Of a stretch of 64,000 bases of DNA, positions 1 through 41,929 are shown piece by piece (position 1 is the first letter of the stretch; each line of letters opens with the position of its first letter). Source of the stretch: Candidatus Babeliales bacterium (GTDB lineage: Bacteria > Babelota > Babeliae > Babelales > JANWKD01); contig CAVXJH010000003.1 in assembly GCA_963762115.1 (NCBI GenBank), positions 1-64,000 on the forward strand. The letters are read 5' to 3'. Below the pieces are notes generated by a model. It did no database searches and was not told the DNA's origin. It saw nothing but the letters and a program-made list of their open reading frames with translations. The translations under genes were made by a program, and so were the position numbers.

Positions 1-3000
1 TTTACAAAATTGTATTATCGATGTTCAACAAAATGGTTCAAGCACGTTGAATTTTTTAGTGGTGTCGTTGATGAAAATAAAATTATTCTTACAAGATCCA
101 ACAAATGTTAGTTTTGCAGCATTTAATTCTAAGGCTGAATTGGTTATAGGAACGGGTGCTGATGTAAGTCATACGGTCTATGAAATACTCAATGGGCAAG
201 CAATCGAACGAACACTTAATTAGGTCCCAATTATTATGGTAATAAAGGTACGGTGTATGTAAATCTAAATGCAAATCCAACATTTAATGCAACGCAAGCA
301 TCAAGTAATAATGCTAATTATTTTGTGGTGACTGGCGATTGCACAAAAGATGCAAGCATTAATCTTCTCTCTGATACTTCAGGCCTAAATAATGGTTCTG
401 ACATTCGCGGTTGGGGAATTGATAAAGTTGGTGCTTCAGCATATTTAGCATTTACGTATACGAATAATGATACTTCAGGCCAAGCAGCGCGCGGTTCAAA
501 TAGTGTTATGCAACTTGATGGGTTTAATAACGAAGGTCTTTTTCTTGCTGCAACAAATTCTCCTTTGCCAACAAATACCGTTGCAAAATTAGTCTGGGCG
601 GGTGACACTGATTTATATCGTTCATCGGCAAACACGTTAAAAACAGATGGTAATCTTGTCGTTGGCGGTTTAATGCTGGCTGGTGTCGTGCATAATGAGA
701 ATACGGGATTATTATTGACGTCACTCCGTCTTAATGCCGACGTGAGTCCAAGAGCGGCAATTACTGATAATAAATTAGCAACCATTTCAACGCCGGGAAA
801 AGTTGCCAATTCTGCAACAACAGCAACAAGTGCTAATACACCAAACACGATTGTTTTACGTGATGTGTCAGGTAGTTTTACCGCAAATATAATAACCGCA
901 ACGCTGTAGGTGGTGCATCTCTTGATGTGCTCAAAACTGGTGACACTATGACGGGCAACTTGAATATGGCATTGCAATCGCAAGTACGTTTTCAAGATGG
1001 GACTGGTAGCGGTAATTATGTAGGATTAGATGCACCGCCGACTGTTGGTACTAGTTATACGGTGAATTTACCACCGAATGCACCAACAGTTGGTCAGGTT
1101 TTACAAGCAACATTGCTTTTAGCGACACAATGGGGTTATGCGGGAGGATCGCCTGCTGTTAGTGAAACTTATTATGTATTATTGAGTGGCAGTGATAGCA
1201 ATGATGGTTCATATGCATCGCTTTTTAGAACAGTGAGCCACGTCGTGAATGTTGCAGATAGGTAGTAGTACTTGCTCATCCAATAGTGATTAGTGTTGGA
1301 GGAGGCCTTTTTGTTGAAAATACTTCTGGTGGTCCAATTACTATTACTGCTGATGGGATAAGTATTGTTGGTAGATCTGTTACTGGAACAATACTTGTGC
1401 CTACGACACTTTCTAATAATTTATTTAATTGTAGAATGTCAAACGTTACTTTTTTAAGTTTGACGTTAAACGCGGGTGCTCCGGGTTAACAGCAAGTGGC
1501 TTGAATATGGTTGCTGTAGTTGGCCAAGCTGGATTGAATCAATAGTAGTTTCAGGATTTCAAACAGGACTTTCATTAAATGGATCAGGAGCAGCTCCTAT
1601 TATAGCGCTTGTAATATTATACCGCTTGATAACACCACGGCTGTTTCAGTTAATAATGCGCGTGTTATTGTGGAAAGCTCTCTCTTTTTGGGTGCAACAG
1701 CGGCTCTGACGCCACTCAATATAGTATTTTCAGCGACAGGAGTTAATGCGCTGGTGACCTTATTAGGTAATTCAATGCGATTATTAACGACCGTAGTTTC
1801 AATAACGGGTGGTGCTAATGTACGCATTTTAGGAACTAATTTTGAAACAACGACCACCGGTGTTATAGGTAGTGGGGGTAGTTCAACTGATATTGTTGGT
1901 TGTGATTTTATTATTAATAATGCAAGTTCAACTAATGTTGTTGCATCGGGTGCAAATACTACAATAACTATAGATGGGTGTAATATTGATGGTAATGATG
2001 CAACCTTAACGCCTCAAGGGACAGCAGTTTTAGCTACAACAGCGGCATCTCTATTTGTGTATGCTTCTACAATTCAAAATACAAATATTGGTATGCAATG
2101 TGGCATTGCTGGCGATACTAGTTCAACATGATTCGATCAAATTTTGTGACAAGAAATTGTATTATAGATGTTTTACAGCTTGGCTTCTTCGATCTTTCGT
2201 TTTGCGGGGGGCGTTTTGACACGAACAAGTTAAGTATTGCTAATCTTACTAAGGGGACTTTTTCTCCAATTGACAGAACCACCGGCGAACCAATAATGAT
2301 TGGGAATACTGCTGATGTTGAGCAAACATTATATCAAGTTCTTAATGGGACAAGCTTTATTTCAAAATCTTCAATATCAACCTAATTATTATGGTAATAA
2401 AGGGACTGTGTATGTAAATCCAAATGCTGACCCTACCTTTAATGGTGTTCAAGCATCAAGTAATAATGCTAATTATTATGTAGTGACTGGTGATCGCACG
2501 AAAGATGCGAGTATTAATCTCTTATCCGATACTTCAGGGATTAGTAATGCCGGCAATGGCAGCAACATTCGTGGTTGGGCAATTGATAAAGTTGGCACAT
2601 CAGCAAATTTAGTATTTACGTATACCAATAATGATACTTCTGGACAAGCTGCACGTGGTTCAAATAGTGTTATGCAACTTGATGGTTTTAATAATCAAGT
2701 GCTCTTTCCTCTTGCAACAAATTCTCCTTTGCCAACAAATACGGTGGCAAAATTAGTATGGGCAGGAGATACCGATTTATATCGCTCATCGGCAAACACA
2801 TTAAAGACGGATGGTAATTTTGTTGTTGGTAGTTTAACGCCAGCTGGAGTTGTGCATAATGATGTTAACGGATTATTATCAACTTCGCTTATTGTTAATG
2901 CTGATATTAGTGCAAGTGCTGCAATTACTGATAATAAATTAGCAACAATTTCAACAGCAGGTAAAGTTGCCAATTCAGCAACAACGGCAACAAGTTCTAA

Positions 3001-3620
3001 TACACCAAATACGATTGTTTTACGTGATGGTTCAGGTAATTTCTCAGCGGGTACTATTACGGCAAATTTAACGGGTAATGCGACAACATCTAATACCACC
3101 ACAACAGCAGTTAATTTTACGGGTTTACTTGTCGGTGATGTTACTGGTACCCAAGGTGCAACGGTAGTAAGTTTAGTTGTGGTGGTCAAACTGCGGCAAA
3201 TGTAGCGGCAGGTTCAGTTCTTGCTAACGCAGCAACGAGTGCAAATACGCCAAATGCTCTTGTGAAACGAGATGGTTCGGGTAATTTTATTGCCGGCACT
3301 ATTACAGCAAATTTATCGGGTAATGCAACAACGGCAACATCAGCAACAACTGCCACGACTGCGACAAATTTCACTGGATCATTGGCTGGGGATGTAACGG
3401 AGTACGAAAGGTGCAACGGTGGTAAGCACGGTTGGTGGTCAAACGGCAGCAAATGTAGCGTCAGGTTCAGTTCTTGCTAATGCAGCAACGAGTGCAAATA
3501 CGCCAAATGCTCTTGTTAAACGCGATGGTTCGGGTAATTTTATTGCCGGCACTATTACGGCAAATTTAACGGGGAATGTAACGGGTAATCTTACGGGAAA
3601 TGCAACAACGGCAACGAGTC
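1..3620 (+). pseudogene. Frameshifted 5' portion of a giant fibre/tailspike-like surface protein (start lies outside the window); pseudogene or sequence-error region
   Basis: Overlapping ORF fragments (253-909, 927-1265, 1286-1489, 1670-2131, 2300-3205, 3262-3480, 3419-3760) read as one protein across at least ten frame breaks. Motifs include LKTGDTMTGNL, YYVLLSGSDSNDGS, a Gly/Asn/Thr beta-helix-like stretch and the same VxRDGSGNFxAGTITA repeat as the downstream ORF. Confidence 0.75.
225..3070 (+). repeat. Long internal direct repeat: ~225-905 recurs at ~2380-3070
   Basis: Both copies encode YYGNKGTVYVN...ASSNNANY.VVTGD.TKDASINLLSDTSG...AKLVWAGDTDLYRSSANTLKTDGN...KVANSATTATS with obvious nucleotide similarity. 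Confidence 0.9.
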
Positions 3621-6600
3621 GCAACAACAGCAACAAATTTTACTGGATCATTAGTGGGCGATGTTACTGGTACTCAGGGTGCAACGGTAGTAAGTTCTGT
3701 TGGTGGTCAAACAGCGGCGAATGTTGCGGCTGCTGCTGTTGCAGTAAGTTCTGCTACTAATCTTGATACGCCAAATACTTTAGTAAAGCGTGATGCATTT
3801 GGTAATTTTGCTACTAATAAAATAACGATTGATGGTTCTATAACAAATCCTACTGATGCTGCAACAAAAAGTTATGTTGATACGGCAATATCGGCAGGTC
3901 TTGATGCCAAAACTCCTGCGAATGTTGTAAGTACAAGTAATGTTGCTTTAAGTGGTTTGCAAACTATTGACGGAATAACGTTGGTTGATAGCAATCGGGT
4001 TCTTTTAGTTAATCAAACAAATCCAGTACAAAATGGTTTATGGGTTGCGCATGCAGGCGCATGGACGAGACCTGCTGATTTTGCAACTGGTACGACGGCA
4101 GGACAAGCATATGTGCTTATTTTATCCGGTACCATTAATGCAGGTTCTAGTTGGCTTTGTAACACACCATCGGCAATTATTGATACTGATCCTATTGGAT
4201 TTGCAGAATTTTCATTGCCATCACAAACAACTGGCGCAAATGTTGGCACTGGAGCAGGTCAAATATTTAGAGATAAAACGGGCGTTACTCTAAATTTTAA
4301 AACTATTGCAGCTGGTACTCATATGGTTGTCACTAATAATGCAAATGATGTGACATTGTCAACTGATGCAACAAGTGTTAATACGCCAAATACTCTTGTT
4401 GCTCGAGATGGTTCAGGAAATTTTGCTGCTGGTACTATTACGGCAAATTTATCGGGAAATGCAACAACAGCAACCAGTGCAACAACAGCGACAAATTTCA
4501 CCGGTTCTCTTGTAGGAGATGTTACGGGAACACAAGGTGCAACAGTAGTAAGTACGGTGGGTGGTCAAGCAGCAGCAAATGTTGCATCAGCAACAATAGC
4601 TGCAAATGCAGCAACAAGTAGTAATACGGCAAGTACTATTGTAAAGCGTGATGCATCAGGCAATTTTAGTGCAGGAACTATCACCGCAAATTTATCAGGT
4701 AATGCGACAACGGCAACAAGTGCAACAACAGCTGGTTCAGCAACAAATTTCACCGGTTCTCTTGTAGGAGATGTTACGGGAACACAAGGTGCAACAGTAG
4801 TAAGCACAGTGGGTGGTCAAAGCGCTGCAAATGTTGCATCAGCAACAATAGCTGCAAATGCAGCAACAAGTAGTAATACGGCAAGTACTATTGTAAAACG
4901 TGATGCATCAGGCAATTTTAGTGCAGGAACTATCACCGCAAATTTGACAGGTAATGCTACAACAGCTACAAGTGCAACAACAGCTGGTTCAGCAACTAAT
5001 TTTACCGGATCATTGGCTGGTGATGTCACCGGAACGCAAGGGGCAACAGTGGTTAGTTTTGTTGGCGGCCAAAGTGCAGCGAATGTCGCTGCTGCAACTA
5101 CCTTAGCAAATACTGCTACGAGCAATAATGTGGCAAATACTCTTGTTAAACGTGATGCGTCAGGAAATTTTGCTGCTGGTACGATTACCGCGAATTTATC
5201 TGGTAATGCAACAACGGCAACTTCAGCGACAAATTTTAGTGGGTCATTAGCAGGTGATGTTACTGGAACACAAAGTGCAACGGTAGTGAGTTCTGTTGGT
5301 GGTCAAACGGCCGCTAGTGTTGCTTCTGCAACTATTGCCGCCAATGCTGCAACCAATACCAATACAGCAAATACTATTGTAAAACGTGATGCTTTAGGAA
5401 ACTTTTCTGCTGGCACTATTACGGCAAATCTTACAGGCAATGTCACTGGTAATCTTACGGGTAATGCAACGAGTGCAACAACGGCTGGTTCAGCAACGAA
5501 CTTCACCGGTTCATTGGCTGGTGATGTCACCGGAACACAAGGTGCTACCGTGGTGAGTGCGGTTGGTGGTCAAACGGCAGCAAGTGTTGCTTCAGCTACA
5601 ACGGCAGCTAATGCGGCAACGAGCGCTAATACAGCAGGAACTATTGTTAAACGTGATGGTTCGGGTAATTTTTCAGCCGGCACTATTACGGCAAATTTAT
5701 CAGGTAATGCGACAACAGCAACGACGGCAACGAATGCAACGAATGCAACGACTGCGGTGAATTTTAGTGGATCATTGGTCGGTGATGTAACGGGCACACA
5801 AGGTGCAACGGTCGTTAGTTTTGTTGGTGGTCAAAGTGCAGCAAGTGTTGCTGCGGCGACTACTTTAGCAAATACCGCTACGAGCAATAATGTGGCAAAT
5901 ACGATTGTTAAACGTGATGCATCAGGTAATTTTGCTGCGGGCACGATTACGGCGAATTTAACAGGTAATGCAACAACGGCTACATCGGCGACAAATTTTA
6001 GTGGGTCATTAGCGGGTGATGTAACCGGCACGCAGGGAGCAACGGTGGTGAGTACCGTTGGCGGTCAAAGTGCTACTAATGTTGCCTCCGGCGTTGTGGC
6101 TGCAAATGCGGCAACCAATACAAATACTATAAATACCATTGTTAAACGTGATGCTGCGGGTAATTTTTCAGCAGGTACTATTACGGCAAGTTTAACGGGT
6201 AATGTTACGGGAAATTTGAGCGGAAATGCAACGACTGCAACAACGGCAGGCTCAGCAACGAATTTTACCGGATCATTAGCTGGCGATGTAACCGGAACGC
6301 AAAGTGCAACGGTGGTTAGTTCGGTTGGTGGTCAAACAGCAGCAAGTGTTGCATTAGCAACTACTGCAGCTAATGCGGCAACGAGCGCTAATACAGCGGG
6401 AACTATTGTTAAGCGTGATGGATCAGGTAATTTTTCAGCCGGAACGATAACAGCAAATCTTACGGGGAATGTTACCGGTAATTTGACTGGTAATGCAACG
6501 ACAGCAACGAGTGCAACAACGGCTGGTTCAGCAACGAATTTTACTGGATCATTAGCAGGTGATGTAACAGGAACACAAGGGGCAACCGTAGTTAGTTTTG

Positions 6601-7859
6601 TTGGTGGTCAAAGTGCAGCGAATGTTGCTGCTGCAACTACCTTAGCAAATACTGCAACGAGTAATAATATCGCCAATACCATTGTAAAACGCGATGCATC
6701 AGGCAATTTTGCTGCAGGTACGATTACCGCAACGTTAAATGGTAATGCTACGAGTGCAACAACGGCTGGATCAACAATGAATTTTACTGGATCATTAGCT
6801 GGTGATGTAACCGGCACACAGGGGGCAACGGTGGTTAGTTTTGTTGGTGGTCAAAGTGCAGCAAATGTTGCTTCAGCTACTACGGCAGCTAATGCAGCTA
6901 CAAATGCAAATACAGCAAATACTATTGTGAAACGTGATGCATCAGGTAATTTTTCAGCTGGCACCATTACGGCAAATCTTACAGGAAACGTGACGGGTAA
7001 TTTGAGTGGAAATGCAACAACGGCAACAACTGCCGGATCCACAACAAACTTTACTGGTTCATTAGCTGGTGATGTTATTGGAACGCAAGGTGCAACGGTG
7101 GTGAGCTCTGTTGGTGGACAAACGGCAGCAAATGTTGCTTCAGCTACAATAGCAGCAAATGCAGCAACAAGTAGTAATGCACCAAGTACTATTGTAAAAC
7201 GCGATGCATTTGGTAATTTTAGTGCTGGAACTATTACGGCGTCATTAACAGGCGCTGCGTCATTAAATGTGCTTAAAGCAGGTGATACAATGACTGGTTC
7301 ATTAACATTGCCTGCAGGTACTACAGGAGTGCCATCATTACAATTTTCTGGCAGCACCAATACAGGCTTATCTGCTCCTATTGCAAATACACTTTCATTG
7401 AGTACGAATGCTTTACAAAGAATGAATATTGATACCACAGGAAGTGTTACTTACCAATCAAATTATAAAATGTATGCATATAGATCAACAAATCAAACAG
7501 TAAACAATACAACTGCAACAATTCTTTTCAATACGGTTTTATTGGATCCAAACTCAAATTATAATGCCTCAACGGGAACATATACTGTGCCCGTTGCAGG
7601 AACTTATATGATAAATGTAACAGTAATGGCAACATCGAACGGTGGAGCTGGTGAAACAGTTAATATTGTTAAAAATGGAACGGCAGTCACTGGTGCATCT
7701 GTTGCTCAAACAGCAACTTCGGGGCAATTTCCAATTACAACCTGTGTCTTGCTTAACTTTGCAGCGGGGGATACGATTCAAATTCGGTTTACAACGAGTG
7801 GAAATGAAACGGTAGTAGCGAATAATACGCATGTGGCTATTCATTATATGTCATTTTAA
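3600..7859 (+). CDS. Intact 3' part of giant repetitive fibre/adhesin: phage tail-fibre-like insert, ~85-aa Thr/Ala/Gly/Asn repeats, C-terminal C1q-like domain
   Basis: 1419-aa ORF whose start is not the true start. DAATKSYVD and LSGLQTIDG..RVLLVNQTNPVQNGLW..AWTRPADF are tail-fibre-type motifs. 12 GDV(T/I)GTQ repeats. C-terminal FNTVLLDPNSNYNASTGTYTVPVAGTY matches the C1q pattern. Confidence 0.8.
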   Translation: MQQRQRVATTATNFTGSLVGDVTGTQGATVVSSVGGQTAANVAAAAVAVSSATNLDTPNTLVKRDAFGNFATNKITIDGSITNPTDAATKSYVDTAISAGLDAKTPANVVSTSNVALSGLQTIDGITLVDSNRVLLVNQTNPVQNGLWVAHAGAWTRPADFATGTTAGQAYVLILSGTINAGSSWLCNTPSAIIDTDPIGFAEFSLPSQTTGANVGTGAGQIFRDKTGVTLNFKTIAAGTHMVVTNNANDVTLSTDATSVNTPNTLVARDGSGNFAAGTITANLSGNATTATSATTATNFTGSLVGDVTGTQGATVVSTVGGQAAANVASATIAANAATSSNTASTIVKRDASGNFSAGTITANLSGNATTATSATTAGSATNFTGSLVGDVTGTQGATVVSTVGGQSAANVASATIAANAATSSNTASTIVKRDASGNFSAGTITANLTGNATTATSATTAGSATNFTGSLAGDVTGTQGATVVSFVGGQSAANVAAATTLANTATSNNVANTLVKRDASGNFAAGTITANLSGNATTATSATNFSGSLAGDVTGTQSATVVSSVGGQTAASVASATIAANAATNTNTANTIVKRDALGNFSAGTITANLTGNVTGNLTGNATSATTAGSATNFTGSLAGDVTGTQGATVVSAVGGQTAASVASATTAANAATSANTAGTIVKRDGSGNFSAGTITANLSGNATTATTATNATNATTAVNFSGSLVGDVTGTQGATVVSFVGGQSAASVAAATTLANTATSNNVANTIVKRDASGNFAAGTITANLTGNATTATSATNFSGSLAGDVTGTQGATVVSTVGGQSATNVASGVVAANAATNTNTINTIVKRDAAGNFSAGTITASLTGNVTGNLSGNATTATTAGSATNFTGSLAGDVTGTQSATVVSSVGGQTAASVALATTAANAATSANTAGTIVKRDGSGNFSAGTITANLTGNVTGNLTGNATTATSATTAGSATNFTGSLAGDVTGTQGATVVSFVGGQSAANVAAATTLANTATSNNIANTIVKRDASGNFAAGTITATLNGNATSATTAGSTMNFTGSLAGDVTGTQGATVVSFVGGQSAANVASATTAANAATNANTANTIVKRDASGNFSAGTITANLTGNVTGNLSGNATTATTAGSTTNFTGSLAGDVIGTQGATVVSSVGGQTAANVASATIAANAATSSNAPSTIVKRDAFGNFSAGTITASLTGAASLNVLKAGDTMTGSLTLPAGTTGVPSLQFSGSTNTGLSAPIANTLSLSTNALQRMNIDTTGSVTYQSNYKMYAYRSTNQTVNNTTATILFNTVLLDPNSNYNASTGTYTVPVAGTYMINVTVMATSNGGAGETVNIVKNGTAVTGASVAQTATSGQFPITTCVLLNFAAGDTIQIRFTTSGNETVVANNTHVAIHYMSF
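4370..7255 (+). repeat. Coding tandem repeat, 11 units of ~235-280 bp
   Basis: Unit NF(T/S)GSL(A/V)GDVTGTQ(G/S)ATVVSxVGGQxAAxVA...TIVKRDASGNFSAGTITANL; three further copies at ~3110, ~3370 and ~3640. Confidence 0.95.
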
Positions 7860-7865
7860 AAAATA

Positions 7866-7905
7866 GGCAGGTACGTTTTAATTATTGTACCTGCCATCTT
7901 TTTTT
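7866..7905 (+). terminator. Rho-independent terminator
   Basis: GGCAGGTAC/GTACCTGCC stem followed by a T tract, just after the fibre gene stop. Confidence 0.8.
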
Positions 7906-7955
7906 GTTAATTGACTTGTATGAGCTTATTTTTTTATCAATAAAGTGAGTAAGTA

Positions 7956-9917
7956 ATGAAAAAAATTATATATATACTTTTGGTGATTATGTTTGCGCAT
8001 TCAATGGTTTATTGCATGGATGTTGAACGTATTGAGTATAAATCGAGCGGATTGTTACTATTCTTAGATGACACTGAGCATAATGAGATAGGTGCAGTCA
8101 GTCAGTATTTACTATCGGCAATTCGACAAAAAGCTGGTCCGATAGTTGTTTCAGCTTCTTTGCTTGAAAATATTTTTTCTTTATATTATGAAGCACAAGG
8201 TGATCGAGAATCGGCCGCAGATTTATATATTAAATATGTTAAGGATGTTGAGGATCAAAGCGGAAACATAAAAAAAATAAAAATTTTTTATTTAAAAACA
8301 TTACATTTTGACCCGCGTGAATGGATATTTAAAAAAGTTAGTAATTTTTTATATCTTCTTATTCCTAAAGGATATATACAAGCTTCTTTTCCTGAAATAT
8401 GGATTGACAGAGTTGAGCGCTATGATCCAAGAAATATTTCACAAGTTGAGTTATTGCTCGGGTTAAAAGTAAATCATATGGAAACAGTTGATTTTAAAAA
8501 TATTGTTTCTATAAAAGTAACTCAAAAAGATAATTCGGATTATTTTTTAGATGATCTTTATAATGATGCTACTAAAAAAAGTTCTATTTTTTGTGTTAAA
8601 TCAGATTATAAAAGTCGAGGAGCAAGAAAAATTCCTGTATGGTCATTCTATATGCATGGTCATGGTATTATGCAATATCATAGTAGTAAGCCAGGAATAA
8701 TTGTAGGGTTATCTCATAGAGGCTTTGGAAAATTTTTGGATTTTTCAGAAAATAAAATTGTTACTAGATTGCTTATATATATTTCTTGTTATTCAGCAGG
8801 TATTAGTAATGACATTATTTTTAAAGATGCGGAATCTGGAGTACGGAAAACGTATTCGTTTGCTATAATAACGCAAGCTATTTCTGAAGTGCCAATTAGT
8901 AGTGTGCGAGCTGTGCAATGGTCGAGCGATGGTCGAGCGGAAGTAACGACATTGGCCAATTTTGCCTATTTTTTATCATTAGTTCGAAGTACAGATATTT
9001 TTGATTATATAAAGATAGCAGAATCTTTATTTCCGATTATACCTACAGTGCCATTATTTACGCAAGAACCATGGGGACATGTACCACAAATAAAATTGCC
9101 GGGAATTGAATGGTTTTCTGTGATGGCAAGTAGGCAAGATATCGTTTCGATTGGTTCAATTTTAGCAAAAACGAGAAGTCCAAATAAGCCTCTTGATATT
9201 GTTAATTTTTTTAAATCTAGAGAGGTCAGAAAGAAAGATGATCCGAATAAGAACATGCCATTTGATCCAAAAGCTATTTTGCTCTATGCATCGGTGATTC
9301 CTTTTGAGTTGATTATTAATGCTAGGAATTTGGAGGCGATTATTTCAATGATTCCTGGTGATGCTATTCATGTTATTAAAAAAATTAGTTCTTCCACAAA
9401 AACAGAACAAGAGCTTTTGCAATCTTTTATGAGTATTGCAGGTCTTGAAACTCGAAAAATATTTTTTATTGAAGAACTTAATACATTAAAAAACGTTATT
9501 ATTTATAATGTAACTGAGCCAAAAATTATTCCATTGAGTCGTCGTCGCGGGGAATATCAATTATCGTATCCTGGGATACGTTATTGTTTTGCTTTGTATG
9601 AAAAAAAGTATGAAAAAAATAATATTTTGTATAAAAAAGAAGCAAAGTCTGAAGAGCATGTTGTGCGTGATGCGTCATTTATAAAGGGATATGCTGATTT
9701 ATTGGCAGAAGCGCGTGCATTTAAGGATGAGCCATCATTGCTTAGTAGAGAAAATTTAGAAAAAATGAGCGCAACATTGGCAATCACGCATGAAATAAGA
9801 AAGAAAGCAAAACTTATAAAAAAACAACAAAAGAGTAATGCTTTACAGAAATCATTAGAAGAATTGCAGCAGAAATTAATAGAATTACATGCTAAGCTTA
9901 GTAGGCAAAAAGCCTGA
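7956..9917 (+). CDS. Secreted protein, possible clan CD (caspase/haemoglobinase-fold) cysteine peptidase domain
   Basis: 653 aa; signal peptide ending VYC-MD; WSFYMHGHG and LLIYISCYSAG about 40 aa apart; C-terminal leucine heptad tag. Confidence 0.6.
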   Translation: MKKIIYILLVIMFAHSMVYCMDVERIEYKSSGLLLFLDDTEHNEIGAVSQYLLSAIRQKAGPIVVSASLLENIFSLYYEAQGDRESAADLYIKYVKDVEDQSGNIKKIKIFYLKTLHFDPREWIFKKVSNFLYLLIPKGYIQASFPEIWIDRVERYDPRNISQVELLLGLKVNHMETVDFKNIVSIKVTQKDNSDYFLDDLYNDATKKSSIFCVKSDYKSRGARKIPVWSFYMHGHGIMQYHSSKPGIIVGLSHRGFGKFLDFSENKIVTRLLIYISCYSAGISNDIIFKDAESGVRKTYSFAIITQAISEVPISSVRAVQWSSDGRAEVTTLANFAYFLSLVRSTDIFDYIKIAESLFPIIPTVPLFTQEPWGHVPQIKLPGIEWFSVMASRQDIVSIGSILAKTRSPNKPLDIVNFFKSREVRKKDDPNKNMPFDPKAILLYASVIPFELIINARNLEAIISMIPGDAIHVIKKISSSTKTEQELLQSFMSIAGLETRKIFFIEELNTLKNVIIYNVTEPKIIPLSRRRGEYQLSYPGIRYCFALYEKKYEKNNILYKKEAKSEEHVVRDASFIKGYADLLAEARAFKDEPSLLSRENLEKMSATLAITHEIRKKAKLIKKQQKSNALQKSLEELQQKLIELHAKLSRQKA

Positions 9918-31065: not shown

Positions 31066-32034
31066 TTAAATAATTTCGAAATGGTCCTTCAGGTTGTTTT
31101 TTAATTCATAGTCATCTAAAAAAGAAGCAATTGTTTTGCATCGCTTCATATATTCATCATATTTTTGTGCAGCCAAATGGTCATGAATATTGTTTTGTTT
31201 TAAAGCACTATATAAGTCAGCTGATTGTAGCATCCAGTTTGTCATTGTTCCTGGCTTACCTGTTGCCAATTCATCATCAAGGAGTGTTTTAAACTCATGA
31301 TCAGGTGACCATTGAGCGCCGGTGTTAAGTAACATTTTTACTATTTCCAAACCTATGTCACTGGCAAGAAAGGGAATAAAGGTAAAAGTATGAAACAATA
31401 CGCTTATTCCACGATGATTACGATAATTAGGATCAATACCTAAAGCTAATGTTGCTTTCAATCCAGCAATATTTCCCTGTTCTATGTCAGCAAACAGCTC
31501 ATAATATGCGGCTTGTTTACAGCATATATCAACATTGGAAAGATTTTGATCTGTTATGTGCATAAATAACAAATCTGATTTTTCTTTTCTTTTATATTTT
31601 AATTCTAGTGCATCAACAAAAGGTATTAATTGTTTACAATGAAAGCTAAATCGAAGATTTTGAGTGCAATTTATCATCCAATGTGATTTTAAAAATTGCG
31701 TCATTGTTTCCTGACGTATAATTTCTACATTATTAATTACAAGGCTATCTTCGACTGTATATGGCCATTGTGCATCTGCTTCTAAAAGAAGTTCTAACAA
31801 TTCTAAAGACGTTTGATAATAAAAGTGCTCAAGAAGAACATTTCTCAAAAAAGGAAAGCCGAGGTATTTTTCATTAACATCAAAATCTTGAGCAATTATA
31901 TTTTTGATTTCCTTAACATTACCAAATTTAATTGCTTGATTAAACGATGTTGCCAAATCCTGCTTGTAAGTATTCTCGTGTGCATAAGTTGTGATGATGA
32001 CGGTGATACCCATCAATAACGATAGACATTTCAT
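31066..32034 (-). CDS. Secreted ankyrin-repeat protein (two duplicated ankyrin-pair modules)
   Basis: AIKFGNVKEIKNIIAQDFDVN..LELLLEADAQW and GNIAGLKATLALGIDPNYRNHRG..IVKMLLNTGAQW. Confidence 0.75.
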   Translation of the reverse strand: MKCLSLLMGITVIITTYAHENTYKQDLATSFNQAIKFGNVKEIKNIIAQDFDVNEKYLGFPFLRNVLLEHFYYQTSLELLELLLEADAQWPYTVEDSLVINNVEIIRQETMTQFLKSHWMINCTQNLRFSFHCKQLIPFVDALELKYKRKEKSDLLFMHITDQNLSNVDICCKQAAYYELFADIEQGNIAGLKATLALGIDPNYRNHRGISVLFHTFTFIPFLASDIGLEIVKMLLNTGAQWSPDHEFKTLLDDELATGKPGTMTNWMLQSADLYSALKQNNIHDHLAAQKYDEYMKRCKTIASFLDDYELKNNLKDHFEII

Positions 32035-32329: not shown

Positions 32330-34391
32330 TTAAAATTCAAGGTTTTTAAAACTTCGTATTTTAATTTTGGCCATCGAATTGCTCATAATTGGCAGTATTT
32401 CTTGTTGTGCGGGGTTGTGGCGCGTTTCAATAACATTTGACATGGCTGTCTTAATGCAACTTGGTAGTGCAGCATAAAGTTTATAAGATTCAGTTGGTAA
32501 TGGATTTCCTGATGGCAAAAATGAATGTATTGTTAACGGTGTTTCTCTGTTATAGCATTGTGCAATAAAAGCTGATTGATTGGCAGAAAGTTTTTTACTT
32601 TTTTTAATCACTTTTTTAGAATTTGCAAAAGGACCTATAAGTAAAATTCTGCTTGCAACAGCTTTTGCGGTATAAAGCCCATTGTTGGCATGAGCGGTTT
32701 CATAGGAAGTTTTTTTATTGACTAATGGTGGCCATGTAGGCCAATGATTAACATTATCAGAGGAAGTGCAATTAAAAATCTCTGTGGAAGTTTCTTGATT
32801 ATGAAGAATAATATGAGGTTTTTGTTTTTTATTGGAAACGAGCATGCCCGACGAGTAGCCCATTTGTGGTAATATATAGATAAAAAAATTTCTTTTTTCT
32901 AGGTCGAAAACATGCATTTCTTGATCAGAACTAGTGACTGGTGTGCCATCAAAAGAGAATTCAAAATTACCGGGGAATTCAGTTGGGAAAGGAATTTTGC
33001 ATGTAAGGGTATATCTTTGATGAGAATTAGTATCTTCTTGAAGATTCCAAAGTTCAATTGTTGCATTGGCATAGTCCCTCCAAGTTTTTTCATCGTGTGA
33101 AATTACAAGAAGATCTTTTGTATGGGGAGTGAAATTAAAATCAATAATAGCTTGTTCACTGGTAATACAATATTTTTTACCAGTTTTGGTATTCATAAGA
33201 GCAATTTCATGAGGGCTGTCAGTAAAATAGGCGAATGTTTTTCCATCAGGAGAAAAACCAAACCGTTTTTTCTTGCTTATAGAGTATCGATAATGAGTTG
33301 CCAATTTTCTTGAAAAATTCTTTAGATCGCTCAAAAAAATTTTCGTTTCTCCGTGATCATTCATAAAGGCTGCAAGCATAGTCCCATCATGATTCATTAT
33401 GGGTTTCCAAAAATGTCCATCAACTCTTTTTAATGGTGTATTTTGAGTTACTTTCCCTATATCAAGGGGATATTCTGTTGAAAAATAATGTATTACTTCA
33501 TCGCCCAGGGCAAATGTAGACTCATCATCGCTCATGCAAAAGAATGTTGAAATTGAATCTGAAAAACATGAGTCGGAATTATAACGTGTATCAATTTCTT
33601 TTACTAACTTGGTAGTTTTAGTGTTCCATAGTTTTAATTTACCTTCTCTATCAAGCGAAATAAGATAAGAATGTTGTGGAGAAAAAGTGATTTTTTCAAA
33701 ACGTTTTTTACTATTTCTTATTAATTTTGTGATTGGTGTAGTTAATTGAGTAATGGGTGAAGCTTTTTCATGAGAACGATTTAGAATGCTTGAGCTTATT
33801 AACGCATCTATTTCTTTAGGAAGTTGTGCATGAAGCGATGCCCATGATTGTTGTGTATATTCTTTTATATGTCGTTTTGCATACGCTGCTTACAGCAGCA
33901 TCTAATAATGATTTGCAAGCAAGATAGTTTGCTGCATCGAGAATTTCTATGAGTTCTTCTTGAGAGCAGGTGTTAAATTGCATAAAAAGATGATCTAAGT
34001 CTTGATATAAGGGGAGGGCTATAAGTTGAAGATATTTTTCTTCTTGTTCATTCTCTTCTTGATCATTTTTAAAAAATGCCTGAGATAAAATAGTGTAGCG
34101 GGTTATTATTGCATCATAACTTTTTAGTAGCGCGATAATTTTTTGTAAGGTCGGTGTTGAAATATTTTGTAAGCAAATTGGCTTATCGCTATTTTCTGTA
34201 AGTTTAATCATTGCATTGAGTTGTGAGCAATGGGCAATTATTTCTTGATCAACTAAAAAAACTGCCTTTTTATCGCCTGATTTCAGGCGAACTTTTTTTT
34301 TTTGTTCTTTGATGACATTTTCTTCCATTGCTTGAACAGATAAAGTATAAAAAACTAAAAGGCTAAAAAATAAAATACGATAGGTAATCAT
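32330..34391 (-). pseudogene. Frameshifted secreted Skp1/BTB + F-box-like + WD40 propeller protein (~686 aa if repaired)
   Basis: N-part: VQA-MEE, VRLKSGD..FLVDQEI, ICLQNISTPTLQKII, LIEILDAANYL. Removing one base near 33890 gives an open frame ..LPKEIDALISSSIL..FSPQHSYLISLDREGKLKLWN.. that runs into ORF 32330-33535. Confidence 0.85.
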
Positions 34392-36247: not shown

Positions 36248-36808
36248 ATGAAAACGCATAGTGTTATTATCAGTATTTTTTGTTGCATTGCAGGATATTG
36301 GGTATATGAGCATTATGTGCCTTGTGTAGCAAGTTCACAGGAGATTATTATGAAATTAACGAGTCCAGCATTTGAGAACCAGTCAAAATTGCCTATTGAT
36401 TATACTTGTCATGGTAAAAATAGTAATCCTCCTTTGCTCATACAAGGTGTGCCTGCAGAAGCAAAAAGTCTTGTTTTGATAATGTCGGATCCGGATGCAC
36501 CACAACCACAACCATGGATTCATTGGGTGCTTTTTAATATTTCTCCAAAAACGACAGAAATTAATGAAGCAGCCCCGCATGCCATGTTAGAAAGTGCTAA
36601 GCGGGGTAAAAATTCTGCACAAACGTTGGAATATTATGGCGCTTGTCCGCCACAAGGTCATGGCATACATCACTATCATTTTATGTTGTATGCTTTAGAT
36701 GAATTGCTAGGTTTGCAAGAAGGTGTTTCGTATGAAGAAATTAAAGAAGCCATGCAAGGACACATAATAGCACAAGCAGATTTAGTTGGTCTTTACGAAA
36801 CGAAATAA
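36248..36808 (+). CDS. YbhB/YbcL family PEBP (Raf kinase inhibitor-like) protein
   Basis: MKLTSPAF, SLVLIMSDPDAP, WIHWVLFNI, YYGACPPQGHGIHHYHFMLYALD. Confidence 0.93.
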   Translation: MKTHSVIISIFCCIAGYWVYEHYVPCVASSQEIIMKLTSPAFENQSKLPIDYTCHGKNSNPPLLIQGVPAEAKSLVLIMSDPDAPQPQPWIHWVLFNISPKTTEINEAAPHAMLESAKRGKNSAQTLEYYGACPPQGHGIHHYHFMLYALDELLGLQEGVSYEEIKEAMQGHIIAQADLVGLYETK

Positions 36809-36815
36809 TGATTTT

Positions 36816-39206
36816 ATGAATTATATAAAAAAGTTACAGGAAATTACGTTACAAGATGTTCCCTTGGTTGGTGGTAAAACAGCGTCATTGGGTGAGATGA
36901 TACGAACGTTATCATCGTCTGGGTTTCGTGTTCCTGATGGTTTTGCTATTACGGCAAAAGCGTATTGGCATTATCTTGATGCTAATCATTTACGTGAAAA
37001 AATTGATAACGTCATGCAAACATTGCCTGATAGTGCCGATGAGCAACAATTGCAAAAAGTTGGCAAAGAAATCAGAGCATTATTTATGCAAGGGACTATT
37101 CCTGAAGATCTCAAACAAGAAATTATAGTTGCTTATAAGCAATTATCAAAAGAATATAATGAGCGTTTATTAGCAGTTGCTGTTCGTTCATCAGCCACCG
37201 CAGAAGATTTGCCAGGGGCTTCGTTTGCAGGGCAGCAAGAGACCTTTTTGCATATTAAAGGTATTGATGCATTGTTGCAAGCATGTAAAGGATGCCTTGC
37301 ATCGCTTTTTACTGATCGTGCAATTGTGTATCGTATTTCAAAAAATTTTGACTATCGAAAAATTGCTCTTACTATTGCTGTGCAAAAAATGGTTAGATCT
37401 GATAAGGCTTGTTCGGGTGTTGGTTTTTCGTTGGATACTGAAACTGGATTTAAAGACGTTATTATTCTTAACGCATCATATGGGCTTGGTGAAGCTATTG
37501 TGCAAGGACAAGTTACCCCCGATGAGTATCATCTTTTTAAACCAACGTTGAAAGAAGGTTATGTAGCAATTATAGCAAAAAAAGTGGGTGGTAAAGAAAA
37601 AAAATTAGTGTATGGAAAAACACAAGAACATCCTACCATGTGGAAAAAAGTTGTTCGCAAAGAACAAAATCAGTTTTGTTTAACTGATGAAGAAATTCTT
37701 GAACTCGGAAAATCAATAATGCTTATTGAAGAACATTATTCTGAACTGCATCAGAAATGGACGCCGATGGATGTTGAATGGGCAAAAGATGGTAATGATG
37801 GATTATTATATATTTTACAAGCTCGGCCAGAAACAGTGCATGCGCTTGAAAATAAGTCTCGATTATTTGAGCAAACTATTTTGAAAACAAAAAATCCAAA
37901 AATTATTTTGCAGGGTCAAAGTATTGGTCAAAAAATTGCGCAAGGAAAAGTAAAAGTAATAGATTCCATACAGCAATTTGCTCAATTTGCTCAAGGCGAT
38001 GTTTTAGTCACCATAATGACTGATCCTGATTGGTTGCCATTGCTCAAAAAAGCGAGTGCTATTATCACGGATTCAGGAGGTCGCACTTGTCATGCAGCAA
38101 TTGTGAGTCGAGAATTAGGAATTCCAGCATTAATTGGCACTAAAAATGCAACAAAAATATTGCAAAATAATGCAGAAATCACGGTTGATTGTAGCCAAGG
38201 AAGCACTGGTTATGTCTATGAAGGTGCGGTTGCATTTGACGTTGAAAAAATTGATATAACGGCATTAGCTAAACCGCCTGTTGATGTTATGGTGAATCTT
38301 GGTGATCCTGCGCAGGCATTTTCTGTTTCACAATTGCCCTATCTTTCGGGGGTTGGATTAGCTCGTTTAGAGTTTATTATTGCTTCATCAATTCAGGTTC
38401 ATCCAATGGCATGTATTCATGATGAAATGATAGTAGATAAAAAAGTGCAAAAAAAAATTAGAAATTGTATGCAGGCATTTTCATCAGGTAAAGATTTTTT
38501 TGTTGATACATTAAGTTATGGGATTGCAATGATTGCAGCGGCGTTTTATCCAAAGCCGGTGTTAGTAAGATTTTCAGATTTTAAAACAAATGAATATAGG
38601 AACTTGTTGGGAGGTTCTTATTTTGAACCTGAAGAAAACAATCCTATGTTGGGATTGCGCGGTGCTTCACGTTATTATAGTTCTTTATATCAAGAAGCAT
38701 TCGCGCTTGAATGCGCTGCTTTAAAAAAGGTACGTGATGAAATAGGCTTAACGAATGTCATCGCGATGATTCCTTTTGTGCGAACAATGGTGGAAGCAGA
38801 AAATGTTATAAGCAGCATGAAGAAAAATGGGTTAAAGCAAAGCCTTGATGGTTTAAGAGTGTATATGATGCTTGAGATTCCTTCGAATGTGATGTTAATT
38901 GATCAGTTTTGTGCGTTGTTCGATGGTTTTTCAATTGGCTCCAATGATTTGACACAATTTACTTTGGCTGTTGATCGTGATTCATCAGTTTTGGCAGATC
39001 TTTTTGATGAACGTGATCAAGCAGTAAAAAAAATGATTTCTTTGGCAATTGCCGGTGCCCTTAAGCATAAAAAACCAATTGGTGTTTGTGGGCAAGCGCC
39101 ATCAGATTATCCTGAAATGGCAGAGTTTTTTATTGATGAAGGAGTCACTTCTTTATCATTGAATCCTGATGCTGTGCTACCATTTTTACTTTCATTGAAT
39201 TCATGA
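36816..39206 (+). CDS. ppsA: Phosphoenolpyruvate synthase (pyruvate, water dikinase)
   Basis: VGGKTASLGEM, VRSSATAEDLP.ASFAGQQET, GGRTCHAAIVSRE, FSIGSNDLTQ; likely start is the ATG at 36816. Confidence 0.96.
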   Translation: MNYIKKLQEITLQDVPLVGGKTASLGEMIRTLSSSGFRVPDGFAITAKAYWHYLDANHLREKIDNVMQTLPDSADEQQLQKVGKEIRALFMQGTIPEDLKQEIIVAYKQLSKEYNERLLAVAVRSSATAEDLPGASFAGQQETFLHIKGIDALLQACKGCLASLFTDRAIVYRISKNFDYRKIALTIAVQKMVRSDKACSGVGFSLDTETGFKDVIILNASYGLGEAIVQGQVTPDEYHLFKPTLKEGYVAIIAKKVGGKEKKLVYGKTQEHPTMWKKVVRKEQNQFCLTDEEILELGKSIMLIEEHYSELHQKWTPMDVEWAKDGNDGLLYILQARPETVHALENKSRLFEQTILKTKNPKIILQGQSIGQKIAQGKVKVIDSIQQFAQFAQGDVLVTIMTDPDWLPLLKKASAIITDSGGRTCHAAIVSRELGIPALIGTKNATKILQNNAEITVDCSQGSTGYVYEGAVAFDVEKIDITALAKPPVDVMVNLGDPAQAFSVSQLPYLSGVGLARLEFIIASSIQVHPMACIHDEMIVDKKVQKKIRNCMQAFSSGKDFFVDTLSYGIAMIAAAFYPKPVLVRFSDFKTNEYRNLLGGSYFEPEENNPMLGLRGASRYYSSLYQEAFALECAALKKVRDEIGLTNVIAMIPFVRTMVEAENVISSMKKNGLKQSLDGLRVYMMLEIPSNVMLIDQFCALFDGFSIGSNDLTQFTLAVDRDSSVLADLFDERDQAVKKMISLAIAGALKHKKPIGVCGQAPSDYPEMAEFFIDEGVTSLSLNPDAVLPFLLSLNS

Positions 39207-39264
39207 TAAAATAAATAAGTAATAAAATTTTTGAATGTACATTAAACACCAATAAGGAGAAACA

Positions 39265-40503
39265 ATAAAAATAAATATTATTATTTTTGTACTTATTTTT
39301 GTTGGTGGGTTGCAATGCATGGAAGATCAAAAAGATTTTTCTTTTTTTTATGATCGTGTGGAAGATTTGGATGCTGTTGAAGCATATCCAAATTCTCCAT
39401 TTTTTGAAATGGATACAGAACAGTCAATGAATTTTCCAAGTATTCAACAAGATGAGCATAAAAATCATGTTGCACAAACACCTATAATTAATCAAAATGT
39501 ATTGTCTGAGATATCTGAACATCCCCTAAAAAAAAGAAAAGCATCTATTTTTGAATCAGAAGGAGTCCCAAGTGATTCAGTTGATGTAAATACTGTTCGT
39601 TTTACTAGAGAATCTAAAAGTCCAAAGAAAAAAATAAAAAAAACTACATTGGAGCATTTTAATGATCCAAGTATTCCCGATGATTTTAAATGTTTCGAAT
39701 GTAAAGTTGGTTATACCGCTAAAAGTGGAAAGAATTATCATTTAAAGCGAGCGCACACAATTTCTCCGAGTAATATGTGTATTGAATGTGGTTTTATAGT
39801 TAGTAAAAATCAAGAAAAAACGCATGGACGTTTTCATGATTCAATTATTTCGGATGAACTTAAATGTTTTGAATGCAAGGTTGGTTTTTTATATAAAAAT
39901 GAGATAAAACAACATTTCATGCAAAAAGTGCATAAAAATTCTAAAAGTTTTGTACCAGAAGAATTTAAAAGTTCCAATCGTCCAAAAAAAATTACCTTGG
40001 ATCGTTTTTATGATCCAAGTACCCCCGATAAATATAAATGTTTCGCATGTAAAGCTGGATTTAAAAATAAAGGTGCAATAAATTATCATTTGGTACAAGA
40101 GCACAAAACTTCTCTTAATAGTACTTGTAAAGACTGTGGTTATATAATCAGCAGAAATGAAGAAAAAGATCATGCGTTTTTTCATGATTCAACTATTTCA
40201 GATGAATTAAAATGTTTTGAATGTAAAGTTGGTTTTCTATATAAGAAAGAAATCAAAAAACATTTGGAACGATCAGTGCATCAAAGTTCTAATACCTGTT
40301 ATTGTGGTTATAAGATTATTTGGAATCGTGCAAAGATACATGAGCTTTTTCATGATTCAACTATTCCAGAGAATCTTAAATGTTTTACGTGTAAGGTTGG
40401 GTTTGAGAAACAAGCTAGAATTAACCACCATTTAATATATGTGCACAAAATTTCTCCCCATACTCCTGAAGCCATAAAATTTTTGGCACAAAAAGGTGCA
40501 TGA
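39265..40503 (+). CDS. Secreted C2H2 zinc-finger repeat protein with NLS-like motifs; apparent ATA start
   Basis: AAGGAG RBS then in-frame ATA-AAA-ATA.. (IKINIIIFVLIFVGGLQC-MED); PLKKRK and PKKKIKK; eight C-x1-2-C..H..H units. Confidence 0.85.
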   Translation: MKINIIIFVLIFVGGLQCMEDQKDFSFFYDRVEDLDAVEAYPNSPFFEMDTEQSMNFPSIQQDEHKNHVAQTPIINQNVLSEISEHPLKKRKASIFESEGVPSDSVDVNTVRFTRESKSPKKKIKKTTLEHFNDPSIPDDFKCFECKVGYTAKSGKNYHLKRAHTISPSNMCIECGFIVSKNQEKTHGRFHDSIISDELKCFECKVGFLYKNEIKQHFMQKVHKNSKSFVPEEFKSSNRPKKITLDRFYDPSTPDKYKCFACKAGFKNKGAINYHLVQEHKTSLNSTCKDCGYIISRNEEKDHAFFHDSTISDELKCFECKVGFLYKKEIKKHLERSVHQSSNTCYCGYKIIWNRAKIHELFHDSTIPENLKCFTCKVGFEKQARINHHLIYVHKISPHTPEAIKFLAQKGA

Positions 40504-40601
40504 AATATTTTAAACATTTTTAAGCGTTTGTATTTTTTTATTTTTATTTTATTCTTAAAGTTGTTTGGTAGATTTAAATGTTATAACAGAAAGAAATACG
40601 C

Positions 40602-41129
40602 ATGAAAAAAATAGTAAAGCAGTTATTTTTAAAAATAATTCTTATTTTTACTGCGTTTGGTATTAATCAACCAGTACGCGCACATAATAATGGTCCGAAT
40701 GGATTGGTTATTGCCGGGGGGATTGTTGTTGGTACAGGATTATTATATATAACGGGTCGTGCGAGTAGTGCATGTATTTATGCACTTGCAAAGCGACGAT
40801 ATGAACCTGAAATGGAATTGTTGCAACGCATGGTTTATAAGCCCAGTGTGTTAGAAGAAGAATTGGTGCCCTATATTCTTGATTGCCATGCGCAAGCAAA
40901 TGAATCGTTCTTTTTCAATCCTGGTATTTATAAAAATTATCCGTTACTTCACTATAAAAAAGACTTGGATGGGTATATCAACTATCTTTGGTATTTACAG
41001 CTTTTTAGACTAGGAACTGATATGCGACAAGAAATCAGTATTTTTATTGATAAGCTTAAAATGATTCGTCGTTATATTGTTACTGATTATAGTTTTGTAA
41101 AAGAACAACGTCAGTTTGACGAACGATAA
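40602..41129 (+). CDS. Secreted/membrane hypothetical protein
   Basis: 175 aa; signal peptide ending VRA-H followed by a Gly-rich hydrophobic segment. Confidence 0.75.
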   Translation: MKKIVKQLFLKIILIFTAFGINQPVRAHNNGPNGLVIAGGIVVGTGLLYITGRASSACIYALAKRRYEPEMELLQRMVYKPSVLEEELVPYILDCHAQANESFFFNPGIYKNYPLLHYKKDLDGYINYLWYLQLFRLGTDMRQEISIFIDKLKMIRRYIVTDYSFVKEQRQFDER

Positions 41130-41137
41130 TAGAAAAT

Positions 41138-41175
41138 AAAAAAAGCTGCAAAGATATATCTTTGCAGCTTTTTTT
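41138..41175. terminator. Bidirectional terminator between convergent genes
   Basis: A7-GCTGCAAAGAT..ATCTTTGCAGC-T7. Confidence 0.9.
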
Positions 41176-41668: not shown

Positions 41669-41929
41669 TTATTTTTCCCATTTTCTTTTGATGGTGAAGT
41701 TACTGATAGGGTCATGATAATGCTTACAATTTTCACAACAACATCGATCGGCCGACCAGGCATATCGTTCACAGTTGCACATGCAAACAACATGTCGATA
41801 ATTTTGATAATTTGGTCCTTCTTTCCTTGAACGATTTTGATTGTCCATGCAGCCGCTATTGGTGAGAGTGAGCATGGTGTTGAGAGAAAAAAAGAGGGCG
41901 ATAAGCCAAATGGATACAGAGGTTTTCAT
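41669..41929 (-). CDS. Small secreted Cys-rich protein
   Basis: 86 aa; GGAGA RBS; signal peptide; VCMCNC..RCCCENCKHYH. Confidence 0.65.
   Translation of the reverse strand: MKTSVSIWLIALFFSLNTMLTLTNSGCMDNQNRSRKEGPNYQNYRHVVCMCNCERYAWSADRCCCENCKHYHDPISNFTIKRKWEK

Follow-up and report, generated by a model that had tools for sequence, protein, structure and literature searches.

An eight-finger C2H2 protein with a predicted signal peptide in a Candidatus Babeliales bacterium: a candidate mimic of host transcription factors

The eight-finger gene and its features

The window analysed here is the whole stretch of 64,000 nucleotides (nt) at positions 1 to 64,000 of contig CAVXJH010000003.1 (assembly GCA_963762115.1, Candidatus Babeliales bacterium), and it carries a gene for a protein with eight C2H2-type zinc fingers. 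A preliminary description, made from the sequence alone, had read this protein as a mimic of transcription factors that acts in the host nucleus. The fold, the host-associated lineage and the layout of the protein speak for that proposal, but TGEKP linkers are missing, the start codon is a rare ATA and no marker of an injection system was found. The following features of the gene, all on the forward strand, are needed for the argument (SD, Shine-Dalgarno; NLS, nuclear localisation signal; aa, amino acids; A and B, the two finger types):

39254..39259, +, SD-like AAGGAG, 5 nt 5' of the ATA start, read from the sequence
39265..40503, +, eight-finger gene, 412 aa, likely with a non-canonical ATA start
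39265..39318, +, predicted Sec signal peptide of 18 aa, hydropathy 3.98 over 9 residues, homologues alike
39319..39474, +, acidic/aromatic region (aa 19-70; 13 D/E, 3 K/R, 9 F/W/Y/L) that may serve in activation
39523..39546, +, basic motif PLKKRKAS, NLS-like (FPKKRKAS in the family member P0008)
39619..39642, +, basic motif SPKKKIKK, NLS-like (P0008 has PSVKRKKI in the corresponding position)
39636..40283, +, direct repeat within the gene, two copies of 300 nt at 76% identity (dS 0.51, dN 0.25)
39691..39933, +, fingers 1-3 (A plus a B-A doublet)
40039..40281, +, fingers 4-6 (A plus a B-A doublet), copy 2 of the 348-nt duplication
40297..40446, +, fingers 7-8 (B-A doublet)

Finger array and fold

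The eight C..C..H..H motifs lie at 39691-39756, 39778-39837, 39865-39933, 40039-40104, 40126-40185, 40213-40281, 40297-40353 and 40381-40446. Five of them (type A, C-x2-C-x12-H-x4/5-H, with KVGF-like starts) match the classical C-x2-4-C-x12-H-x3-5-H spacing. The other three (type B, C-x1/2-C-x11-H-x3-H) have an F before the last His (H-x2-F-H) and an 11-residue core in every case, which departs from the classical spacing. Eight fingers of two types had been described before, and this stands; the alternation claimed for them is not strict, because the order is A-B-A-A-B-A-B-A. The linkers measure 7, 9, 35, 7, 9, 5 and 9 residues, the 35-residue gap separating fingers 3 and 4. That the array was built by internal duplication is borne out by the two copies of the repeat (39636-39935 and 39984-40283), which are offset by 348 nt.

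All 32 Cys/His ligands have been kept (32/32), and dN/dS of the internal copies is about 0.5. Among the core residues of the five A fingers, F/Y is present in 5/5 and Ile replaces Leu in 4/5; the B fingers follow no such pattern. The net charge of +1.9 per finger is close to the median of 2.0 in TGEKP types. Bases are read, among others, by helix position 2. Positions -1, 3 and 6 are named as base-reading in the part of PMC11202855 that we consulted. In the five A fingers the non-synonymous difference is 0.59 at helix positions -1, 2, 3 and 6 and 0.22 at other positions.

Pfam, which the preliminary description had proposed as a check, places all finger matches of the eight-finger protein below the curated cut-off (best zf-C2H2_2, E 0.0012); other sub-threshold matches of the finger proteins are of the zf-met/jaz types. 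The fold itself is supported by structure prediction and by profile and Foldseek searches, which find C2H2 structures. A profile of seven family sequences, built without a known eukaryotic row, retrieved solved C2H2 arrays (Aart, E 7e-10; PRDM9, E 2e-9). AlphaFold run on the single sequence gave a predicted local distance difference test score (pLDDT) of 34, and fingers 1-4 have no confident model. For fingers 5-8, AlphaFold2 returned four beta-beta-alpha units (pLDDT 88.7, predicted template modelling score 0.49) from a 14-row alignment in which five rows are canonical arrays from relatives that bias the model. A viral fold library (best E 7e-4) and a structure-cluster atlas yielded generic C2H2 matches only, the look-alikes in the atlas being mainly from arthropods, archaea and viruses. 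The eight-finger protein has a C2H2 fold in the model, but neither its linkers nor its Pfam score are those of a Kruppel-type array.

The B-A doublet

We counted 16 B-A doublets in nine proteins. Their linker is nine residues long in 15 of 16, an aromatic residue precedes the last His of the B finger in all 16 (a criterion of the search pattern), and Gly stands before the core Phe or other aromatic in 17 of the 18 family A fingers. In the model, pLDDT is 93-97 over the B-A linker and 70 over the A-B linker. Because of the common linker, the conserved Gly and this firm B-A and loose A-B arrangement, the doublet is likely to be the structural unit. Its best structural match is residues 388-446 of ZFP568 bound to DNA (VIA Z 7.0, root-mean-square deviation (rmsd) 3.4, 58 residues aligned; Foldseek E 1.5e-4, TM-score 0.36), the next match having Z 2.8; with a TM-score of 0.36 and Z < 8, the match may reflect just a common arrangement. 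The matched range presumably corresponds to ZF2-ZF3, which, if right, would fit a B finger acting as spacer. The consulted part of PMC10484683 describes ZF2 of ZFP568 as a spacer across an AT-rich minor groove.

The doublet may also have a different use. The protein could be exported and act on the host while its doublets bind protein or RNA and not a DNA sequence, serving as a scaffold, decoy or dimerisation module. The short core of the B finger, the fixed linker, the aromatic before the last His, the Gly of the A fingers, the rigid B-A and loose A-B junctions and the zf-C2H2_2 and zf-met/jaz character of the sub-threshold matches all suit such a role, as does the overlay of a B finger on the UBZ of DNA polymerase eta (Z 2.8; see below), and dimerising C2H2 fingers are known (PMC12774644, in the part consulted). 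This alternative nevertheless has to account for an acidic N-terminus with two basic clusters as in transcription factors, for a charge per finger like that of TGEKP types, and for a best structural match that is a DNA-bound pair; moreover, zf_UBZ does not match and the ubiquitin-binding Asp is absent. We regard it as unlikely, though deserving of serious attention.

Start codon and signal peptide

The reading frame of the gene is uninterrupted from 39256 to 40503. The database gene call (P0002, 284 aa) begins 128 residues downstream and misses the N-terminus. Since no ATG, GTG or TTG precedes the hydrophobic stretch in this frame, the signal peptide depends on ATA 39265. The signal peptide of the preliminary description is thus there as a hydrophobic stretch, but it is present only with translation from this rare codon. 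It was called by an in-house rule and not by SignalP; cleavage is likely before M19, judging from the 'xM[E/Q]' pattern of the phylum. The family members P0004, P0006, P0008, P0037 and P0063 and the genes of G001, a genome of the same genus, share this N-terminus.

The SD spacing of 5 nt is among the commonest values in the genome (24 of 159 ATG-started secreted-type genes). Among 169 genes of the genome with a signal peptide followed by M[E/D/Q], 159 start with ATG, seven with GTG or TTG and three with neither; of these three, only the eight-finger gene combines a clear SD with ATA. An ATA start unique in this set means that the exported form may be scarce. A short-read contig (X2 record 5, 39164-39314, depth 2.1) crosses the ATA with 0 differences, which argues against a sequencing error at this codon, although this contig is possibly the same material as the assembly and not a second strain; the short-read contigs leave 39618-40832, including the finger region, without cover. 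A promoter scan performed at chance (8 found, 12 expected).

It is conceivable that the gene is decaying in this strain, or that its sole product is cytoplasmic and starts at the ATG at 39319, which is in frame and has a weak GGTG some 11 nt upstream, the function of the family holding for its relatives. The unique ATA, where homologues and paralogues begin with Met, and the status of the gene as a GC-poor accessory insertion (see below) are in line with this. Yet the 412 codons are intact, the SD before the ATA is strong and well spaced, the signal peptide is undamaged, no Cys/His ligand has been lost and dN/dS of the internal copies does not speak for decay. We therefore consider this improbable.

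Acidic N-terminus and basic motifs

The acidic/aromatic region noted in the preliminary description was found again (13 D/E as opposed to 3 K/R in aa 19-70). The first 50 residues of the mature protein have a net charge of -10, a value reached by 3 of 151 non-finger secreted-type proteins of the genome. Both basic motifs, PLKKRKAS and SPKKKIKK, are likewise present before the fingers. P0008 has the two clusters in unchanged order, again followed by the F-N-x-P motif, although the surrounding sequence differs. K[KR]x[KR] is an NLS consensus (PMC3946659), and two such motifs fall in the 124-aa pre-finger region, a number equalled in 4 of 1000 shuffles. A tri-basic motif occurs in 14 of 16 finger proteins of this genome (shuffle mean 3.2) and in 56 of 151 controls (shuffle mean 38.9); it was picked after the sequences had been seen, and we give it little weight.

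Finger genes elsewhere in the genome

Close relatives of the eight-finger protein are few. The protein query matches 3 of 61 related genomes and the family profile 14 of 261, with strong matches only in this genome (G000) and G001. An exhaustive protein search gave 181 matches at E<=0.001; of seven examined besides the protein itself, five were used (P0004, P0006, P0008, P0037 and P0063, all with a signal-peptide-like start), while P0013 and P0017 were dropped as generic, probably eukaryotic or viral, finger proteins. A word-index protein search returned only the protein itself, and two homologues when the profile was used.

The genome contains 19 open reading frames (ORFs) with at least two fingers, that is, 18 besides the eight-finger gene, and 16 of the 19 pass a strict signal-peptide rule. 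Fourteen secreted-type finger genes form a tandem array (G000:C6:348531-361607, L097): eleven have a three- or four-finger C-terminus and a basic K/R-K/R-R-T-x-E-E motif, and three show the B-A doublet. In many cases the end of a gene overlaps or adjoins the SD of the following one, with a common junction sequence, which suggests that the array grew by duplication through unequal recombination. In its fingers 1 and 3 the reading positions show the excess of variation described below for G073, G108 and G109. A further four secreted-type genes with several fingers, of other patterns, lie at C3:494523-495296, C6:326447-327692 and C7:102600-103430. The sequences suggest several independent finger families in this one genome.

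Finger proteins across the phylum

Of 261 genomes of the phylum, 81 have a PF00096 match, in 59 of them above the cut-off, compared with 1 of 14 named and 0 of 50 unrelated control genomes (50 of the 76 loci L021-L096). The genome count is a lower bound, because this genome and G001 were both missed. The finger family is likewise under-counted, because PF00096 does not see its divergent members, such as the eight-finger protein, and gene callers assign them wrong starts.

For a closer comparison we drew on 25 genomes and used 77 multi-finger ORFs whose 5' end is complete, taken from loci chosen around the best Pfam or profile hits; at least two of the 77 are antisense shadows of finger genes and were kept in the denominator. 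The strict signal rule is passed by 54 of 77 finger ORFs; among the ORFs of this genome, 212 of 768 long ones and 5 of 66 with a P-loop pass it. This rule replaced a first rule that was too loose (68/77 finger and 430/768 long ORFs). TGEKP-like linkers occur in 45 of the 77. Outside the fingers, an NLS-class motif was found in 16 of 54 proteins (shuffles: mean 0.46, maximum 2). Among secreted proteins without fingers at these loci, 1 of 23 has such a motif. When each genome is represented by one protein, the figures are 6.4 of 23, and 0.23 when shuffled. Over the first 50 residues of the mature protein, net acidity has a median of 5 in finger proteins (n=39) and of 1 in non-finger proteins (n=23). 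The layout claimed for the eight-finger protein, with signal peptide, acidic region, basic motifs and fingers, thus recurs across the phylum above controls.

Differences also concentrate in the base-reading residues of some relatives. The proportion of non-synonymous differences (pN) at helix positions -1, 2, 3 and 6, pN at other variable positions and the proportion at synonymous sites (pS) are 0.54/0.21/0.44 in G073, 0.48/0.35/0.22 in G108 and 0.50/0.31/0.33 in G109, values that are pairwise and uncorrected and come from loci picked around best hits with paralogues that are not independent. One G073 protein is a true TGEKP array (PF00096 E 1e-92), and the G073 and G108 proteins score above the Pfam cut-off. 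On the basis of their sequences, the array proteins of these three genomes are the best candidates for DNA binding.

The loci in question (L099, G073:C1:228000-246000; L113/L125, G108:C2; L126, G109:C28) hold tandem genes for Kruppel-type proteins with a signal peptide, TGEKP linkers and up to 12 fingers. In the G073 members, two basic clusters about 14 residues apart stand just before finger 1, like a bipartite NLS. Two finger proteins of another genome (L013:376-1938, G063) contain KRTFLEAF, which fits the minor-site importin motif KRx(W/F/Y)xxAF exactly.

Lineage and export

The genome is a metagenome assembly of 1.53 Mb (95% complete, 3.1% contamination). The closest match of the PheS encoded in the window is a Ca. 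Babeliales record (81% identity), with two further Babeliales in second and third place. According to the consulted part of PMC4776705, members of this phylum are intracellular parasites of protists with components of a type II secretion system (T2SS) and with ankyrin, WD40 and F-box proteins; abundant signal peptides and life inside protists are likewise described in the consulted parts of PMC6561590 and PMC4776705. Host association is supported at lineage level, by the placement of PheS and by these sources. For C. destructans, the consulted part of PMC6561590 reports replication in the host cytoplasm, degradation of the host nucleus late in infection and signal sequences in 44% of the proteins.

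Among export genes we found two secretins, two of GspF type and two of GspE/PilT type. SctV/FlhA (type III secretion system, T3SS), VirB4 (type IV) and VipB (type VI) were not found in this 95%-complete genome, which argues that there is no injection machine. A search for DsbA and DsbB found neither, but VKOR is present, so that cysteines of exported proteins could become oxidised.

The protein might accordingly stay in the envelope, as a zinc-binding or disulfide-bonded protein of the periplasm or surface. A Sec peptide by itself leads only to the periplasm, no injection-system marker was found, VKOR is present, and a signal peptide is not specific to effectors, because so large a share of C. 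destructans proteins carries one (PMC6561590, in the part consulted). An envelope role would, on the other hand, leave unexplained the enrichment of NLS-class motifs, the TGEKP linkers in 45 of 77 ORFs and the variation at base-reading positions, and DsbA and DsbB are missing from the genes found. We take it to be quite improbable, slightly more so than decay of the gene.

Genomic setting

The neighbours of the eight-finger gene are:

36786..39206, +, upstream gene, phosphoenolpyruvate (PEP) synthase-like
40602..41129, +, downstream conserved hypothetical gene, other border of the insertion site

In G001 these two genes lie about 100 bp apart with no finger gene between them, and the two G001 homologues of the eight-finger gene sit at other loci. 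Since the flanks are adjacent there, the eight-finger gene is either an accessory insertion here or was lost in G001. Its guanine-cytosine (GC) content is 29.8%, that of the neighbours about 34%. Eukaryotic contamination or an assembly artefact, which the eukaryotic character of C2H2 arrays, the arthropod, archaeal and viral look-alikes and a metagenome assembly with 3.1% contamination might bring to mind, is very improbable: the contig of the gene is 586 kb long, and the bacterial genes on its two sides are neighbours in G001 (this synteny largely refutes the idea); the gene has an SD, no introns, a signal peptide in the style of the phylum and homologues in G001, and a short-read contig runs from the intergenic DNA upstream into its start.

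Several other features were noted. At L147 (G004:C1:133464-134351) the PEP-synthase-like match lies in a 365-aa frame, compared with about 800 aa in relatives, and the gene is possibly split or frameshifted. In the window, 33816-34391 (-) encodes a signal peptide and a Skp1_POZ domain above the Pfam cut-off (E 5.7e-5), and its product is, by sequence, a candidate mimic of host ubiquitin-ligase adaptors. Nearby are ankyrin-like (31066-32034, -) and beta-propeller-like (32330-33535, -) ORFs, both below Pfam cut-offs. An 86-aa protein with a hydrophobic N-terminus, a Cys-rich C-terminus and no Pfam match is encoded at 41669-41929 (-). A 17-bp hairpin between A and T runs at 41138-41175, between convergent genes, is likely a bidirectional terminator. 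GC is 0.39-0.45 in window positions 1-8000, compared with 0.30-0.35 over most of the window.

Proposed function

We propose that the eight-finger protein is an imitation of host transcription factors that is exported by Sec and the T2SS, and we give this an even chance. The protein would be translated at a low level from the ATA, exported by Sec and released into the host cytoplasm through T2SS-like secretins or in vesicles. Importin-alpha might then bind the two basic clusters and carry it into the nucleus. There, the predicted C2H2 folds would be arranged as rigid B-A doublets, in which the A fingers read bases and the short B fingers serve for spacing or bracing, while the acidic/aromatic N-terminus would recruit host coactivators and alter host gene expression.

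Besides the ATA start, the missing injection machine and VKOR, a number of observations weigh against this proposal. The TGEKP linker is absent from the eight-finger protein and occurs in none of the 19 finger ORFs of the genome (0/19), three fingers have the 11-residue core, the Pfam matches stay sub-threshold, and PF00096 has no match in either this genome or G001. Over the 18 family A fingers, position +4 is mixed, with no conserved Leu, and the reading positions are only modestly more variable than elsewhere. In the eight-finger gene pN at reading positions (0.59) equals pS (0.58; n=5 fingers), and in finger 2 of the tandem array of this genome the trend is reversed (0.17 at reading positions, 0.31 at others). 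In this genome the plain K[KR]x[KR] motif fails to set the finger proteins apart, being rarer in them (4 of 16) than in other secreted proteins (86 of 151); motifs of NLS classes 1 and 2 are not enriched in the finger proteins either (2/16, compared with 15/151). Among nine family members, P0037 and C6:359936 lack every basic motif tested, and P0063 has one only inside its signal peptide.

For the relatives of TGEKP/Kruppel type, a role as exported mimics of host transcription factors is considerably easier to accept, and we think it probable. A broader proposal falls a little short of an even chance in our view: that Babelota run a large arsenal of exported C2H2 transcription factors with importin-type NLSs and acidic activation regions, amplified in tandem arrays, retargeted at their base-reading residues like KRAB-ZNFs and PRDM9 and delivered without an injection system, the eight-finger protein being a divergent branch with a new rigid two-finger module. 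The bacteria would in that case reprogramme the genomes of protists by means of the DNA-binding fold that is commonest in eukaryotes themselves.

If true, this would add a second natural class of programmable bacterial transcription factors to that of TAL (transcription activator-like) effectors and would account for the control that a parasite with a minimal metabolism has over its host. A recognition code could then predict host targets and hint at the hosts of uncultured Babelota. The finger proteins also make it testable how Babelota proteins with Sec signals reach the host cell. The interest of the finding is carried more by the phylum-wide pattern than by the eight-finger gene alone.

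Comparison with known systems

Ros/MucR proteins have a single finger in a cytoplasmic globular regulator. The eight-finger protein cannot be assigned to them, as it has eight fingers and a signal peptide and no ROS_MUCR match in Pfam. UBZ domains share the 11-residue spacing of the B finger and need a conserved Asp in the helix to bind ubiquitin. UBZ3 of DNA polymerase eta (PDB 3wup) overlays a B finger with Z 2.8 and rmsd 2.6 over 31 residues. A UBZ3 identity was rejected: this Z is tied with ordinary fingers, PF18439/zf_UBZ gives no match at E up to 10, and the Asp is absent (the B-finger helices read HGRFH, HAFFH and HELFH).

We found no description of zinc-finger effectors in Babelota in the literature, although the original genome papers or their supplements may hold a mention at annotation level. 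By term look-up, zinc fingers and C2H2 are not mentioned in the main texts of PMC4776705 and PMC6561590, as far as these were consulted. In a term search of the consulted parts of two nucleomodulin reviews (PMC7819608, PMC7232420), no bacterial C2H2-finger effector came up, and the zinc-finger passages concern host proteins. The ankyrin, F-box, WD40 and leucine-rich repeat proteins of Dependentiae resemble the finger proteins in lineage, signal peptides, expansion and presumed host targeting (PMC4776705, PMC6561590, in part), but their repeats bind protein.

TAL effectors read DNA through 34-aa helical repeats and have an acidic activation domain. Together with HsvG and HsvB, TAL effectors such as AvrBs3 are similar to the eight-finger protein in being bacterial, NLS-bearing and directed at the host as transcription factors (PMC7819608, in the part consulted). 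They differ in being injected into plants by a T3SS, whereas here we find a C2H2 scaffold, a Sec signal and presumably a protist host. An identity with TAL effectors was rejected, the repeat unit being a C2H2 doublet, with no match to a TAL family in Pfam and SctV/FlhA not found. Listeria LntA is likewise Sec-secreted and NLS-bearing and comes from an intracellular bacterium (PMC7232420, in the part consulted); it is, however, all-helical, binds BAHD1 and is made by a Gram-positive organism with no outer membrane to cross.

The best profile and structure matches are to eukaryotic Kruppel/TFIIIA arrays (PF00096; ZFP568, 5v3j; PRDM9, 5egb; BCL11A), with which the eight-finger protein shares tandem beta-beta-alpha units, the spacing of the A fingers and a basic surface. 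Unlike these arrays, it has a signal peptide, B fingers that are one residue short, linkers of 5-9 residues without TGEKP, and fingers paired in rigid doublets.

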